Assembly: GCF_024298765.1 (NCBI RefSeq)
Contig: NZ_CP101210.1
Length of the DNA stretch: 64,000 nt
Origin: Escherichia coli
GTDB lineage: Bacteria; Pseudomonadota; Gammaproteobacteria; Enterobacterales; Enterobacteriaceae
Strand: one strand, 5' to 3'
Notes under the pieces: generated by a model
The model's database searches: none
The model's input: only the letters and a program-made list of their open reading frames with translations
What the model was told of the DNA's origin: nothing
Part shown: piece after piece, positions 4,038 through 64,000 of the stretch
Layout: each line of letters starts with the position of its first letter
Numbering within the stretch: the stretch's first letter is position 1
Program-made: the position numbers and the translations under genes

Positions 4038-4073
4038 TAAAAAAATAAGCCCGTGTAAGGGAGATTACACAGG
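4038..4073 (-). terminator. putative Rho-independent terminator downstream of yegQ
   Basis: Inverted repeat ccgtgtaa...ttacacagg (4050-4073) followed on the minus strand by a T-rich run (plus strand aaaaaaataag). Confidence 0.4.
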
Positions 4074-4210
4074 CTAAGGAGGTGGTTCCTGGTACAGCTA
4101 GCATTTTATGGGTTATGTTTTTCAGCGAAACGGATGATAACCTTAATAAATGCAGCTGTATGTGATCGGTTTCTAAGAATTTTCCATCCGGGAAAAATAA
4201 TCGAAATTAA

Positions 4211-17454: not shown

Positions 17455-17600
17455 AACGGGAAAGCCCCTCCCGAGGAAGGGGCCTTAAATAAGGAAAGGG
17501 TCATGATGAAGCTACTCATCATCGTGGTGCTCTTAGTCATAAGCTTCCCCGCTTACTAAGACTACCAGGGCGGGGGAAACCCCGCTCTACCCTCACTCCT
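17455..17600 (-). ncRNA. putative Sib-type antisense sRNA (antitoxin of the ibs type I TA pair), copy 1; ends approximate
   Basis: Overlaps the small ibs ORF on the opposite strand; minus-strand hairpin GCCCCTTCCTCGGGAGGGGC (17464-17483) followed by a T-rich tract; part of a ~326-bp tandem repeat. Confidence 0.45.
17503..17559 (+). CDS. Ibs-family type I toxin, 18 aa hydrophobic peptide (MMKLLIIVVLLVISFPAY)
   Basis: Short ORF with RBS (aaggaaaggg) read directly from the sequence; absent from the ORF track; matches the Ibs toxin family. Confidence 0.7.
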   Translation: MMKLLIIVVLLVISFPAY

Positions 17601-17847
17601 GAAAGTATGCCTTCACGATAAGATTGTCAATCCGCAGGCTTTGTAGTCTGCGATCCTGCCAGCAAATATTCTTTGCGAGTCGTTACGCAATAATCACAGA
17701 GGAAACTATTTTATTCACGCGTTAGCGATAGACTGCATTCAGGGCGAAAGGAGGTAAGCCGATGATTTCAGCGGGACGCTGAAACGGGAAAGCCTCTCCC
17801 TGTACTGCACCCATTTTGTTGGACGATGAAATGGAATAGCCCCTAAT

Positions 17848-19217: not shown

Positions 19218-19277
19218 CTGTCCAACTTTTTGGGGTCAGTACACCCGGAGAAGAGGGCTTTTAATAAGGAAAGGGTT

Positions 19278-19337
19278 ATGATGAAGCACGTCATCATACT
19301 GGTGATACTCTTAGTGATTAGCTTCCAGGCTTACTAA
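19278..19337 (+). CDS. Ibs-family type I toxin, 19 aa (MMKHVIILVILLVISFQAY), copy 2
   Basis: Short ORF with RBS immediately past the IS150 right end; paralogue of the peptide at 17503. Confidence 0.65.
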   Translation: MMKHVIILVILLVISFQAY

Positions 19338-19557
19338 GAACACCAGGGGGAGGGGGAAACCTCTCCCTAACCCTCACTCCTGAAATTATGTCACTCCGCC
19401 CTTAGTGTCAATCGACGGCTCTCCGTTCTTGCGAGGCGAATAGCAAAATTTTCTGCGCCGCCGGGCCTAATTCTGAAAGTTTCTTCGTTTGTTCTTATTT
19501 CATTATTGCAGTCGGTATGATACCGGACCTCAATAATTCTCTAAGAAAGGATTTCTT

Positions 19558-34336: not shown

Positions 34337-35920
34337 TCACACCTCGTACTCCAACTCGCCATCCTTATGCAGCGGAATAATCTGCACCTTCTGCACGCGA
34401 TGGCTTTCCACCTGCAACGTTTTAAGCAAATAATCCCCCACCTGAACTTCTTCGCCAGGTTTTGGAATACGCTGTAAATATTCCATCAACAGCCCGGCAA
34501 TGGTGTGATATTCACGTTTTTCATCCAGCGGCAGCGGCACATATTGCACCAGATCTTCCAGCGGCATATGACCATTCGCCGTCCAGGAACCGTCCGCATT
34601 CTTCTGAATATCATGGCGGGCGTCGATCTCTTCCACTTCGTTCGGTAAGTTACCGGCAATGGTTTCAGTGACGTCACTTAATGTCACAATCCCTTCCACC
34701 GAGCCAAACTCATCCACCACAAAAGCAAAGTGCGTGCGGGCATTACGGAACTGCTCCAGGGCAGGTAACAACGGCAAGGTTTCCGGGAACACCAGCGGCT
34801 GGCGAATCAACACCCGCAGGTTGAGCGGTTCGCCACGCAGTGACTGTTGTAGCAGGTCGATAACGTGAACAACACCGAGCAAATCTTCTGCGTCATCACC
34901 GTCGGTAACCACCAGCCGCGTATGCTGATTTCGCTCCAGCAACTGGCGGATCTCGTCTTCCGGCGCGTTGAGATCGATATGCTCAATATCGTGGCGCGAC
35001 GTCATAATGCTGCTGACAGTACGCTGGTTAAGATTAAGTACCCGCTCAATCATCCGCCGTTCCTGCGGATTAAAGATCTGCTGGTTACCATGATCCACCA
35101 GCATGGACGCGGTTTCGGCGTCCAGTTCCGCATCTTCTTTTTGCCCGCTAAGCAGGCGCATTACCGCTTCGGTAGTCCGCTGGCGTAGCGTCTGGTTAGC
35201 GGAAAGAAAACGTCGCCGGTTAAAGATAGCCAACTGATTGAGCGCCTCGATCATCACCGAGAAACCAATGGCAGCGTACAGGTAGCCTTTCGGAATGACG
35301 AAGCCGAAACCTTCTGCCACCAGGCTAAAGCCAATCATCAACAGGAAGCTTAAGCAGAGAATAACGATGGTCGGGTGACTGTTAACAAATTGCGTTAACG
35401 GCTTGCTGGCCATCAACATCAGGCTGATAGCGATAACCACGGCGGCCATCATGACCAGTAAATGGTCGACCATCCCGACGGCGGTAATCACTGAGTCGAG
35501 TGAGAAGATGGCGTCCAGTACCACAATTTGTGTCACCACCCCCCAGAACTTCGCACCTTTGCGTTGTGTGGGATTATTGCTGTCTTTCCCTTCCAGCCGT
35601 TCGTTCAGCTCCATCGTGGCTTTGAACAACAGGAAGAAACCACCAAACAGCATGATTAAGTCGCGGGCGCTAAAGGTAAACGAGCGGAAGCTGAACAGCG
35701 GTTGCGTCAGGGTGACCAGCCAGGAGATTGACGCCAGCAGTAACAGGCGCATTAACATCGCCAGCAGCAGCCCGGTAACCCGTGCGCGGTCGCGCTGCTT
35801 CGGCGGTAGTTTTTCGGCGAGGATGGCAATAAAGACCAGGTTATCAATGCCGAGGACCAGTTCGATCACAATCAGCGTGATTAACCCGGCCCAGATAGAC
35901 GGATCGGCAATCCATTCCAT
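34337..35920 (-). CDS. yegH: TerC-family membrane protein with CBS pair and CorC/HlyC C-terminal domain (YegH)
   Basis: 527 aa from internal Met [10 protein letters not shown]; the ORF-track start at 35986 is an upstream extension. Confidence 0.85.
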
Positions 35921-36360
35921 AGTAAGTACAAAACCTATTCGTTGTATGACAAATGTCACAATTCGATCATGGATAAATCGGGGCAAAAATGCAATGTTGC
36001 AGCACTATTTATCTCATATTATTTGAGGGTAATAACCTCACATTATCCCTGAATTAAAAGTGGTAATAATAAAACATTATTTAAGAAATATCGCATGTGG
36101 AGGCGCAATATTAAATATTGTCAACCTAAAGAAACTCCTAAAAACCATATTGAATGACACTTAATATAATTCTTAAAAATAGCCAATTGCCGAATTGTTA
36201 CCTTGCCTGCTATTCCGTTAGCTGTAACACTTCCTCCTGCATTATTGGAGAGCCAATATTCAATTACCATAATGTCACCTTATATTCGGAAGTTAATTTC
36301 CGCAATAACCCTTTCTCATCAACGATTGTATGCAGAGAGGGTTTGAAAAATTAAGCTAAA

Positions 36361-36399
36361 TCAGTGTATTGGTAGCTAAAAAGCCAGGGGCGGTAGCGT
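36361..36399 (+). promoter_or_regulatory. JUMPstart element with ops (RfaH-recruiting) site in the wza leader
   Basis: 39-bp cagtgtattggtagctaaaaagccaggggcggtagcgtg; ops GGCGGTAGCGTG at 36388-36399. Confidence 0.85.
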
Positions 36400-36578
36400 G
36401 TCTGGATGCCTGAAAGACCAGTCTGAATTATTCTGTCAATAGCCTGCGGATGAAATCAATTTTTTTAGGACTGATGCCAGTTAAATTTGTATTCAATTAA
36501 CTGCAAGGTAAATGTGCATGGCGACATTGCTATTAATAGTGCACAGGATAATTACTCTGCCAAAGTGATAAATAAACA

Positions 36579-37718
36579 ATGATGAAATCCAAAATGAAAT
36601 TGATGCCATTATTGGTGTCAGTAACCTTGATAAGCGGTTGCACAGTACTTCCGGGCAGCAATATGTCGACGATGGGCAAAGACGTCATCAAACAGCAGGA
36701 CGCTGATTTCGATCTCGACAAAATGGTGAATGTTTATCCGCTGACCCCGCGCCTGATTGACCAATTACGCCCACGCCCGAATGTAGCGCGCCCCAATATG
36801 ACGCTGGAAAGTGAGATCGCGAATTACCAGTATCGCGTCGGGCCGGGCGACGTTCTGAATGTCACCGTCTGGGATCACCCGGAACTCACCACGCCAGCCG
36901 GTCAGTACCGCAGCTCCAGCGACACCGGCAACTGGGTACAGCCTGACGGCACTATGTTTTACCCGTATATCGGCAAGGTCCACGTAGTCGGGAAAACGCT
37001 CGCTGAAATCCGCAGTGATATTACCGGGCGCTTAGCGACGTACATCGCTGACCCGCAGGTGGATGTTAATATCGCCGCCTTCCGCTCGCAAAAGGCCTAT
37101 ATCTCAGGTCAGGTGAATAAATCCGGTCAACAGGCGATCACCAACGTACCACTGACCATTCTCGACGCCATCAACGCCGCAGGTGGCCTGACCGACACCG
37201 CTGACTGGCGCAACGTGGTGCTAACACACAATGGTCGTGAAGAACGCATTTCTTTGCAGGCGCTGATGCAAAACGGCGACCTCAATCAGAACCGACTGCT
37301 TTACCCCGGCGATATTCTCTACGTGCCGCGTAATGATGATCTGAAAGTGTTTGTGATGGGTGAAGTGAAGAAACAGAGCACCCTGAAAATGGACTTTAGC
37401 GGCATGACCCTGACTGAAGCCCTGGGCAATGCCGAAGGTATCGACATGACCACCTCCAACGCCAGCGGCATCTTTGTCATTCGTCCGCTGAAAGGCGAGG
37501 GCGGGCGTAACGGCAAGATTGCCAATATCTACCAGCTGGATATGTCCGATGCCACGTCGCTGGTGATGGCGACAGAATTCCGCCTGCAACCTTATGACGT
37601 GGTGTATGTCACCACCGCCCCGGTTTCCCGCTGGAACCGTCTGATCAATCAGTTGCTGCCAACTATTAGCGGTGTCCGTTACATGACGGATACAGCCAGC
37701 GACATTCATAACTGGTAA
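36579..37718 (+). CDS. wza: outer membrane polysaccharide export lipoprotein Wza
   Basis: 379 aa; lipoprotein signal (LISGC); colanic acid cluster. Confidence 0.9.
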
Positions 37719-40332: not shown

Positions 40333-40424
40333 CGACGCCTGCATTCGCACCGCCCCGTAGGCCGGATAAGGCGCTCACGCCGCATCCGGCAAGCAAACCA
40401 GCTCATAAGCCGGGAGAACAACCT

Positions 40425-50842: not shown

Positions 50843-50931
50843 ATGAATGCGAAACCGAGATGTAAATAACGACAAAAACAAAATTGGCCGTTTCGGTCAG
50901 GGCCAACTATTGCCTGAAAAAGGGTAACGAC

Positions 50932-55340: not shown

Positions 55341-55526
55341 GCCGGATGCGGCGTAAAACGCCTTATCCATCCTACGGTTCCGTGCTCGGGACCTGTAGGC
55401 CTGATAAGACGCGTCAGCGTCGCATCAGGCACTGAATGCCGGATGCGGCGTGAACGCCTTATCCGGCCTACGGTTCTGTGCTCGGGTCTTGTAGGCCTGA
55501 TAAGACGCGTCAGCGTCGCATCAGGC
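55341..55526. repeat. tandem BIME/REP cluster (two ~95-bp units)
   Basis: Two near-identical units each holding gccggatgcggcgt(g/a)aacgccttatcc and tgtaggcctgataagacgcgtcagcgtcgcatcaggc. Confidence 0.8.
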
Positions 55527-59646: not shown

Positions 59647-60642
59647 ATGAACGATAACGTTTTGCTCATAGGAGCTTCCGGATTCGTAGGAACCCGACTA
59701 CTTGAAACGGCAATTGCTGACTTTAATATCAAGAACCTGGACAAACAGCAGAGCCACTTTTATCCAGAAATCACACAGATTGGCGATGTTCGCGATCAAC
59801 AGGCACTCGACCAGGCATTAGTTGGTTTTGACACTGTTGTACTACTGGCAGCGGAACACCGCGATGACGTCAGCCCTACTTCTCTCTATTATGATGTCAA
59901 CGTTCAGGGTACCCGCAATGTGCTGGCGGCCATGGAAAAAAATGGCGTTAAAAATATCATCTTTACCAGTTCCGTTGCTGTTTATGGTTTGAACAAACAT
60001 AACCCTGACGAAAACCATCCACACGACCCTTTCAACCACTACGGCAAAAGTAAGTGGCAGGCAGAGGAAGTGCTGCGTGAATGGTATAACAAAGCACCAA
60101 CAGAACGTTCATTAACCATCATCCGTCCTACCGTTATCTTCGGTGAACGCAACCGCGGTAACGTCTATAACTTGCTGAAACAGATCGCTGGCGGCAAGTT
60201 TATGATGGTGGGCGCAGGGACTAACTATAAGTCCATGGCTTATGTTGGAAACATTGTTGAGTTTATCAAGTACAAACTGAAGAATGTTGCCGCAGGTTAT
60301 GAGGTTTATAACTACGTTGATAAGCCAGACCTGAACATGAACCAGTTGGTTGCTGAAGTTGAACAAAGTCTGAACAAAAAGATCCCTTCTATGCACTTGC
60401 CTTACCCACTAGGAATGCTGGGTGGATATTGCTTTGATATCCTGAGCAAAATTACGGGCAAAAAATACGCTGTCAGCTCTGTGCGCGTGAAAAAGTTCTG
60501 CGCAACTACACAGTTTGACGCAACGAAAGTGCATTCGTCAGGTTTTGTTGCACCGTATACGCTGTCGCAAGGTCTGGATCGAACTCTGCAGTATGAATTC
60601 GTCCATGCCAAAAAAGACGACATAACGTTTGTTTCTGAGTAA
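59647..60642 (+). CDS. NAD-dependent epimerase/dehydratase-family protein, Gnu/Z3206-like (GlcNAc-P-P-undecaprenol 4-epimerase-like)
   Basis: 331 aa; extended-SDR motifs (LLIGASGFVG, YGKSK); sits between wcaM and galF as I recall for Z3206 in O157-type loci. Confidence 0.65.
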   Translation: MNDNVLLIGASGFVGTRLLETAIADFNIKNLDKQQSHFYPEITQIGDVRDQQALDQALVGFDTVVLLAAEHRDDVSPTSLYYDVNVQGTRNVLAAMEKNGVKNIIFTSSVAVYGLNKHNPDENHPHDPFNHYGKSKWQAEEVLREWYNKAPTERSLTIIRPTVIFGERNRGNVYNLLKQIAGGKFMMVGAGTNYKSMAYVGNIVEFIKYKLKNVAAGYEVYNYVDKPDLNMNQLVAEVEQSLNKKIPSMHLPYPLGMLGGYCFDILSKITGKKYAVSSVRVKKFCATTQFDATKVHSSGFVAPYTLSQGLDRTLQYEFVHAKKDDITFVSE

Positions 60643-62011: not shown

Positions 62012-62050
62012 CAGTGAGTTGGTAACTGTTAAGCCAAGGGCGGTAGCGTG
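62012..62050 (+). promoter_or_regulatory. JUMPstart element with ops site (O-antigen operon leader)
   Basis: 39-bp cagtgagttggtaactgttaagccaagggcggtagcgtg; ops GGCGGTAGCGTG at 62039-62050. Confidence 0.85.
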
Positions 62051-62085
62051 TGTTTTGATCCTACCCACGTAATATGGACACAGGC

Positions 62086-62841
62086 CTAAGCGAGGTTCTG
62101 GTTTTCAAATTGTTCCGGACTGAGGCCGCCACACCAACTGTGCCGCCGCCACCGATTGTAATCACATTCGATATAATTAAACACCGTTGCCCGCATTATT
62201 TCCCGGCTGATAAAGTGTTCTCCATGGATACATTCCACTTTCAGCGAATGAAAGAAGCTTTCCACGCAGGCATTATCGTAGCAGCAACCTTTTGCGCTCA
62301 TACTTCCACGCAGATTATGCCGCTTCAGTTGCGCCGTCATGCGTGGCGACATTGACCAGCCAATAACGGCACGTGACCACAGGTCAATGACCACTGCCAG
62401 ATACAGCCAGCCTTCATCTGTACGTAAGTACGTGATGTCTCCTGCCCACTTCTGGTTCGGGCCACTGGCGTAAAAATCCTGCTCCAACAGATTTTCTGAC
62501 ACAGGCAGGCCGTGTGCGCGGTAGCTGACCGGGCTGAACTTCCGGGAGGCCTTTGCCCTCAGTCCCTGACGGCGCAGGCTTGCCGCCACGGTTTTTACGT
62601 TAAAGGGGTAACCCTGAGCACGCAGTTCATCCGTCAGGCGTGGGGCACCGTAACGCTGTTTTGACCGGGTAAAAGCCGCGAGGACAACGCTGTCGCAGTG
62701 TTGGCGGAACTGCTGACGCGTGCTTATCCTTGTCCGCCGCTGACACCACGTATACCAGCCGCTGCGGGCCACCCGGAGCACGCGGCACATTGCTTTGATG
62801 CTGAACTCAGCCTGATGTTTTTCAATAAAGACATACTTCAT
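62086..62841 (-). pseudogene. insF: IS3 OrfB transposase with ~37-aa internal deletion
   Basis: 251 aa against ~288 expected; reads ...[20 protein letters not shown]..., missing the block that I recall contains HTDRGGQY. Confidence 0.65.
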
Positions 62842-63137
62842 TTCAGGCGCTTCGCGAAGTATGTCGCGGCCTTTTGGAGGATAGCCAGCTCTTCATCCCG
62901 TTCTGCCAGCTGGCGTTTGAGACGTGCAATCTCGGTAGACATCTCCAGTTCACGTTCAGAAGACGTCTGCTGATTTTGCTGTTTACTGCGCCAGTTGTAG
63001 AGCTGTGATTCATACAGGCTGAGTTCACGGGCTGCGGCAGTAACACCGATGCGTTCAGCAAGCTTCAGGGCTTCACTGCGAAATTCAGGCGAATGCTGTT
63101 TACGGGGTTTTTTACTGGTTGATACTGTTTTTGTCAT
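62838..63137 (-). CDS. insE: IS3 OrfA (HTH protein, 99 aa)
   Basis: [32 protein letters not shown]... matches recalled IS3 OrfA. Confidence 0.85.
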
Positions 63138-63237
63138 GTGAGTCACCTCTGACTGAGAGTTTACTCACTTAGCCGCGTGTCCACTATTGCTGGGTAAGAT
63201 CATTTTTCTCTCAATCCTCATGATAAAGGAGGTTTAT

Positions 63238-64000
63238 ATGGTGATTTTCGTAACAGGCGGTGCAGGATATATTGGATCCCATACCATACTTGAGTTACTT
63301 AATAATGGTCATGATGCCGTTTCGATAGATAATTTTGCCAATTCCTCTATAGAATCATTAAAAAGAGTAGAGCAAATAACTAATAAGAAAATTATTTCTT
63401 ATCAAGGTGATATCCGTGATAAAAATCTACTTGATGAGATTTTTTCAAGACATCATATCGATGCTGTAATTCATTTTGCATCGTTAAAATCTGTAGGTGA
63501 GTCAAAGTTAAAGCCCTTAGAGTATTATTCTAATAATGTTGGTGGAACTTTAGTATTACTTGAATGCATGAAGAGATATAACATTAATAAAATGATATTT
63601 AGCTCTTCTGCTACTGTTTATGGGAATAACAGTATCCCTCCCCATACGGAAGATAGACGAATTGGTGAAACTACAAACCCATATGGGACATCGAAGTTTA
63701 TAATAGAAATGATTTTGAGTGATTATTGTGATAGCGATAATAATAAATCAGTAATTGCACTACGTTATTTTAATCCAATCGGAGCACATAAGTCCGGGAT
63801 GATTGGTGAAAATCCTAACGGGATTCCTAATAATCTGGTTCCTTATATATCTAAAGTTGCACAAAATCAACTTCCTGTATTAAATATTTATGGCAACGAT
63901 TATCCAACTAAAGATGGTACAGGAGTAAGAGACTATATACATGTCTGTGATTTGGCTAAAGGGCATGTTAAAGCATTAGAATATATGTTTTTAAATGATG
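63238..64000 (+). CDS. gne: UDP-sugar 4-epimerase (GalE/Gne family), first gene of an AT-rich O-antigen cluster; 3' end beyond the window
   Basis: Translation MVIFVTGGAGYIGSHTILELL...YGTSK...; GxxGxxG and YxxxK SDR motifs; RBS aaaggagg; visibly AT-rich. Confidence 0.8.
   Translation, partial: MVIFVTGGAGYIGSHTILELLNNGHDAVSIDNFANSSIESLKRVEQITNKKIISYQGDIRDKNLLDEIFSRHHIDAVIHFASLKSVGESKLKPLEYYSNNVGGTLVLLECMKRYNINKMIFSSSATVYGNNSIPPHTEDRRIGETTNPYGTSKFIIEMILSDYCDSDNNKSVIALRYFNPIGAHKSGMIGENPNGIPNNLVPYISKVAQNQLPVLNIYGNDYPTKDGTGVRDYIHVCDLAKGHVKALEYMFLND

Follow-up and report, generated by a model that had tools for sequence, protein, structure and literature searches.

The yegH-wza intergenic region of an Escherichia coli strain very probably carries the known two-layer control of the colanic-acid operon

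The promoter and leader of cps/wza in E. coli K-12 were reportedly described by Stout in 1996, the JUMPstart element by Hobbs and Reeves in 1994 and the RcsAB box of cps/wza by Wehland and Bernhard in 2000, and Navasa (2014) is cited, besides ChIP in CFT073, on the action of RfaH (occupancy and RfaH-dependent distal expression). Activation by RcsA and RcsB, together with a JUMPstart-RfaH mechanism, has been reported for the colanic-acid operon (PMC9976346; PMC3673037). In CFT073 the wza-wcaM operon was bound by H-NS and silent in rich medium, and in a mutant with delta-hns and delta-stpA it gained sigma-70 and RfaH ChIP signal (PMC9765446). An identical 12-nt ops is present on the non-template strand, in the 5' leader, of other RfaH/ops operons (rfaQ/waaQ, rfb/wzx of the O-antigen, kps, hly and tra). 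As in the case of wza, a long, AT-rich, H-NS-bound surface-polysaccharide operon lies behind it. The distance from ops to the start codon is different: wza has 178 nt, whereas the reported values (PMC9765446) are 40-67 nt in the case of wzx, kps and rfa and roughly 600 nt in that of hly. Further, initiation at wza, unlike in the other operons, is silent unless Rcs is active. The group 1 capsule loci (K30 and Klebsiella cps) have an RcsAB box, TAAGATTATTCTCA, upstream of galF, and also a JUMPstart/ops, which precedes the export genes wzi-wza-wzb-wzc, while a stem-loop follows wzc (PMC3438125). Klebsiella has the box and JUMPstart in separate promoters, P1 and P2, whereas at the locus presented here both would serve a single promoter, with wza as first gene.

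We analyzed a 64-kb stretch of E. coli DNA (the window), in which the gene order is asmA, yegH (minus strand), wza-wzb-wzc-wcaA ... wcaM, an epimerase gene, galF and the O-antigen cluster. Wza, Wzb, Wzc, WcaA and WcaM were identified with the ORF listing and NCBIfam equivalogs, and YegH was recognized by Pfam as a TerC/CBS/CorC protein. The start codon of yegH (minus strand) ends at 35920 and the ATG of wza is located at 36579. The gap between them has 658 bp, in good agreement with the approximately 660 bp of non-coding DNA given in a preliminary description of this region. The AT-rich DNA noted there around 36100-36300 was found as well, as the GC content was 27-38% over 36000-36350, whereas the genes on either side have 50-63%. 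In the gap, the PGAP annotation includes a hypothetical protein of 49 aa (WP_162829205.1; 36121-36270, minus strand). As only 2 of the 74 orthologous regions have it intact, this ORF is almost certainly spurious and we treat the gap as non-coding. The annotated ORF overlaps the wza promoter and the boxes described below. Downstream of the gap, 20 co-directional ORFs separated by short gaps occupy the plus strand from 36579 to 59489 and form a long operon.

Of 5426 complete E. coli genomes, 4831 contain the yegH-wza gap, and in many E. coli, a K-12 derivative among them, its sequence has 100% identity to the one studied here. Compared with cps/wza of K-12, we observed the same locus, the same yegH/wza flanks and JUMPstart/ops 190 nt before wza; the leader differs in nothing. 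Although its wza leader is identical, the strain is distinct from K-12, as shown by an additional epimerase gene located between wcaM and galF and by its different O-antigen cluster. The extra gene (59647-60642) is annotated in a relative as a GlcNAc-PP-undecaprenol 4-epimerase.

We estimate with a probability of approximately 0.9 that the gap is the known control region for the colanic-acid (cps/wca) operon of E. coli, acting in two layers. It matches the published cps/wza regulatory region and is in this respect already known, so its confirmation adds nothing new. What the analysis adds is the exact coordinates of ops, of the boxes and of the likely promoter, and the disruption of the O-antigen leader by an IS3. 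The features of the wza region are listed below; identity was scored against E. coli, and the baseline was 0.52 at 4-fold degenerate third positions of wza.

35921-36578, 658 bp: AT-rich yegH-wza intergenic region, between divergent genes
36003-36016: box D, RcsB-type TGAGATTTATCTCA in other genera; the E. coli form, CACTATTTATCTCA, is decayed and retains only the right half
36082-36095, plus strand: box A, TAAGAAATATCGCA, RcsAB-like, 9/14 positions overall, block identity 0.76
36118-36125, plus strand: TTGTCAA(C/T) motif, nearly invariant, 1 bp upstream of box B
36118-36143: segment made of TTGTCAAC plus box B, identity 0.82
36127-36140, plus strand: box B, TAAAGAAACTCCTA, RcsAB-like, 10/14 positions, a perfect RcsB half-site TCCTA followed by AAAA
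36162-36175: box C, TAATATAATTCTTA, RcsAB-like in both orientations, 10/14 positions, half-site TCTTA followed by AAAA
36195-36240: promoter block, identity 0.76
36203-36231, plus strand: predicted wza promoter, -35 TTGCCT (36203-36208), 17-bp spacer, TG (36223-36224), -10 AACACT (36226-36231)
36245-36345, plus strand: variable part of the leader, identity 0.33
36362-36400, plus strand: 39-bp JUMPstart, Rfam RF01707 at 57.3 bits (E 1.6e-10), identity 0.89 across species
36389-36400, plus (non-template) strand: ops GGCGGTAGCGTG, RfaH recruitment and pause site, an exact match that ends JUMPstart
36425-36445, plus strand: leader block 1 (ATTATTCTGTCAATAG...), identity 0.82
36462-36486, plus strand: leader block 2 (TTTTTAGGACTGATGCCAGTTAA), identity 0.90, present also in a species that has no JUMPstart
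36541-36578, plus strand: leader block 3 (GCACAGGATAATTACTCTGCCAAAGTGATAAATAA), identity 0.91, adjoining the start codon
36579-37718, plus strand: wza, first gene of the approximately 23-kb wza-wcaM operon, all genes of which are on the plus strand up to 59489
40361-40390, plus strand: REP-type hairpin between wzc and wcaA; as a candidate obstacle, it would be read through by RfaH-modified polymerase

For the comparison between species, Wza was used to collect 80 orthologous loci from Enterobacteriaceae, one genome per species, and 74 leaders were aligned. One of the 80 loci was on a contig without upstream DNA. The conserved blocks of the leader showed overall 0.76-0.91 identity to E. coli, versus 0.52 at the 4-fold sites.

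We compared the gap with the RcsAB consensus, TaAGaatatTCctA (PMC4325325), and with the box of the RcsB homodimer, TN(G/A)GAN4TC(T/C)NA (PMC7913699). A scan for RcsAB motifs, proposed in the preliminary description and run here with the consensus, did not decide the matter. It gave one site in the gap, box A, at which all six conserved positions of the RcsAB box are matched in E. coli, but the best sites in the E. coli sequence alone matched 9-10 of the 14 positions and 12% of shuffles equalled them. Since a scan of a single sequence could not decide at this rate, we used footprinting across 74 species. RcsAB-like boxes clustered at four aligned positions (36127, 36162, 36082 and 36003). Box B was kept in 72 of the 74 species, with its centre at about -105 from the predicted start, and box C in 71 (segment 36160-36179, identity 0.86; centre at about -70). 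These two best conserved boxes lie within 36100-36300, which is where an RcsAB box had been expected. Box A was kept in 50/74 species and is located at about -150, while a box-like match at the aligned position of box D, at about -229, was detected in 43/74. The right halves of boxes B and C fit both the RcsB box and the RcsAB consensus, and their half-site TC(C/T)TA is nearly invariant. Near-consensus variants of box B, including TGAGGATAATCCTA, were present in some genera. A literature search with the box sequences found nothing relevant. Outside the boxes, a further conserved TGTCAAT was observed at 36434-36440, in the transcribed leader.

We take the published RcsAB box of wza to lie approximately 100 bp upstream of the start, and box B fits this distance. 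It is also located upstream of the -35 element, near the -100 of cps-type promoters, a position that depends on the predicted promoter. Given its conservation and its distance, box B is most likely the principal RcsAB box. Boxes A and C may be conserved auxiliaries of the predicted box B.

The promoter itself was predicted on the basis of conservation and of the same distance of about 100 bp between box and start. In a position-weight scan TTGCCT-17-TGnAACACT obtained the top sigma-70 score in E. coli and the top median score across the 74 species (9.4 for 36203-36231 versus 6.3 for the next candidate), and its -10 element reads AACAAT in 68/74 species. This predicted promoter implies a start near 36238, a leader of approximately 340 nt and the ATG of wza at about +341. 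A generic promoter scan gave fewer matches than it gave in shuffles. The single match of this scanner, TGGAGA-16-CATAAT at 36246-36273, was rejected as the main promoter, as it lies in the least conserved segment; it is possible that it serves as an E. coli-specific start.

The wza JUMPstart matched the Rfam model RF01707 over its full length (1-38), well above the gathering score of 35. It ends in an exact ops, as had been described; the coordinates given earlier for ops (36388-36399) were off by one base, and the actual ones are 36389-36400. In the window the ops pattern GGCGGTAGnnTG had two exact matches, 36389-36400 and 62039-62050, and the plus strand carries both. The chance expectation was 0.08 matches, and none of 100 shuffles reached two. 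The wza ops is on the coding (non-template) strand, the same as wza. It ends 178 nt before the ATG, where about 180 bp had been stated. In CFT073 (delta-hns delta-stpA), ChIP showed that RfaH occupies this very site, GGCGGTAGCGTG, whose listed position is -190 from wza (PMC9765446, Data set S2); the distance is equal here. If the predicted promoter is used, ops falls at about +151 to +162 of the transcript; the CFT073 list gives ops as 'UTR'. An Rfam search of the leader at a permissive threshold found JUMPstart alone, and a search of the leader for intrinsic terminators found none.

An exact GGCGGTAG was present in 74/80 loci. In 73 of the 80 it was positioned 186-199 nt upstream of the wza ATG, allowing for matches starting at residue 10; in the 74th locus (L046) it was 335 nt before the start of the match. 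Citrobacter sp. On2M has an ops with a single substitution, GGACGGTAGCGTG (L006, 2785-2824). There was no JUMPstart within reach of wza in three loci (L036, L037 and L040), therefore not every lineage needs ops for the operon. We inspected L040 (Pseudescherichia vulneris), in which JUMPstart is absent but boxes, promoter and 3' leader are kept.

The three blocks located 3' of ops are approximately as conserved as JUMPstart over about 50-70 species, and their spacing and the length from ops to ATG are fixed. The gene that follows, wza, has no canonical Shine-Dalgarno sequence. We looked for RNA structure in the leader in several ways. RNAalifold on the leader gave 14 pairs with 0 compensatory changes. 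In three hand-named helices 4 of 18 pairs changed on both sides, a value reached by 59 of 500 shuffles, and a covariation scan of the leader yielded nothing better. The fold of the whole leader was no better than that of shuffles (z = -1.1). Long-range pairing of AUUGGUA in JUMPstart with UGCCAGU (36475-36481) was predicted, yet it showed no compensatory change and was rejected. A hairpin CAGTTAA/TTAACTG in the leader was paired in 79% of cells. The ATG of an 8-codon upstream ORF (36474-36500) was missing in 14/49 species, and of the CsrA-type GGA motifs the one nearest to the wza start codon was lost in Citrobacter. Thus the leader did not show a structured cis-regulatory RNA, understood as a structure supported by compensatory changes, and no structure or known motif among those examined accounts for the three blocks 3' of ops.

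The 178 nt between ops and wza could carry an undescribed control element acting after initiation; in addition, the Rcs operator could comprise three to four boxes arranged as an array, where a single box has been published. Judging from the sequence, we regard this proposal as tentative and on balance improbable. The element may take the form of translational control of a gene devoid of Shine-Dalgarno sequence, of a protein or sRNA site, or of a short leader ORF. Relative to the accessible literature, new leads come only from the 3' leader and the multi-box array, and the conserved 3' leader is the only part that might repay work.

The choice of the operator can be disputed. Box A (36082-36095) or box C (36162-36175) could be the functional RcsAB operator, with box B not being the principal one. 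Box A alone matches all six conserved consensus positions in E. coli. Box C is the most conserved box as judged by identity (0.86, in 71/74 species) and matches in both orientations, and its distance of about -70 from the predicted start is the classical one for a class-I activator. Against this, box A is less conserved than box B (50 versus 72 of the 74 species) and is remote, at about -150, while near-consensus forms such as TGAGGATAATCCTA occur in some genera at box B, whose position also agrees with the published distance of about -100. We consider box A or box C as the operator somewhat unlikely. As boxes A-C may all act together, this choice would be a refinement within the same mechanism.

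The role of JUMPstart/ops can also be viewed differently. The Rfam entry is named JUMPstart RNA and its model contains a 5-bp hairpin, which was base-paired in 99% of cells in 49 species; JUMPstart could on these grounds be a structured RNA element of the transcript and not a DNA signal. However, the pairs of this helix were invariant or changed on one side and none was changed on both, the invariant part of JUMPstart is the unpaired 12-mer of ops, and folding of the whole leader gave, as mentioned, nothing better than shuffles. Further, RfaH is published to read ops as non-template DNA, according to work cited in PMC9765446. Taken together, these observations make an RNA element highly improbable. 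Nearly the same can be said about the wza ops being a conserved relic of little effect, with expression of colanic acid essentially dependent on initiation by Rcs. The three species without JUMPstart, among them L040 with its boxes, promoter and 3' leader, and the substituted ops GGACGGTAGCGTG in one species speak for it, and one paper (PMC3673037) calls RfaH only 'presumably' required by cps. The exact GGCGGTAG that most of the loci (74/80) keep at a fixed distance, with 0.89 identity over 39 bp, argues for purifying selection, and an RfaH ChIP signal appears at wza-wcaM once initiation is de-repressed (PMC9765446). We therefore find a relic very unlikely.

The two-layer control would operate as follows. 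The wza promoter would be a weak, activator-dependent sigma-70 promoter placed in AT-rich, H-NS-bound DNA. Phosphorylated RcsB together with RcsA would bind the upstream RcsAB boxes and turn the promoter on. RNA polymerase would then pause at ops in the untranslated leader, and the exposed non-template ops would recruit RfaH. RfaH would exclude NusG and suppress pausing, Rho-dependent termination and H-NS roadblocks, and it could form a bridge to the ribosome. In this way the operon of 20 genes and 23 kb could be read through to wcaM, past obstacles such as the REP hairpin at 40361-40390, and wza, lacking a good Shine-Dalgarno sequence, might be translated through the RfaH-ribosome bridge. RfaH has been reported to recruit the ribosome (Burmann 2012, as cited in PMC9765446). 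In our own interpretation, the lack of a Shine-Dalgarno sequence in wza fits such recruitment. The elements, their positions and their conservation come from the sequence analyzed here, and activation by RcsAB and occupancy by RfaH come from the literature. Such an arrangement would be a textbook case in which a costly surface polysaccharide is controlled in two layers, stress-triggered initiation by Rcs being followed by processive anti-termination by RfaH.

The window contains a second leader of this kind, ahead of the O-antigen genes.

62012-62050, plus strand: JUMPstart of the O-antigen leader, downstream of galF, Rfam RF01707 at 52.5 bits, ops at 62039-62050
62056-63202, minus strand: IS3 copy of 1147 bp with a TTT target duplication; its orfA/orfB are also minus-strand genes

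The coordinates reported earlier for this second JUMPstart/ops were exact. The claim that both leaders have the same architecture held for the 39-bp element, in which 32 of 39 positions, with ops among them, are identical to those of wza; outside the 39 bp nothing aligned. We limit the likeness to this element, because the distance from ops to the start codon (about 39 nt without IS3) is unlike the 178 nt of wza, and because IS3 follows the O-antigen ops. The first gene of the O-antigen leader (ATG at 63238) has a strong Shine-Dalgarno sequence, whereas wza is preceded by 178 conserved nt without a canonical one. The IS3 is inserted 5 bp after ops and before this first gene. In comparison with strains LHM10-1 and CP52E this copy has a 111-bp in-frame internal deletion, and its integrase core is truncated. 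The junction of the O-antigen ops and IS3 was common to only 2 of 5426 complete E. coli genomes.

At the other end of the wza gap, the segment 35945-35997 that adjoins the yegH start is conserved (identity 0.72) and contains the palindrome TGACAAATGTCA. It is probably the promoter or the 5' UTR of yegH; an Rfam search of this block gave no match. In one of the loci (L002, NZ_CP024134.1, clinical strain 14EC017) an IS1 is inserted in the yegH-wza intergenic region, upstream of the boxes. Within the operon, an algC RNA motif was detected at 50878-50927, ahead of cpsG/manB, and a REP/naRNA4 match at 55398-55468, between wzxC and wcaK. Elsewhere in the window Rfam identified two SIB antitoxin RNAs (17488-17630 and 19263-19411) and the CyaR sRNA (4043-4128).
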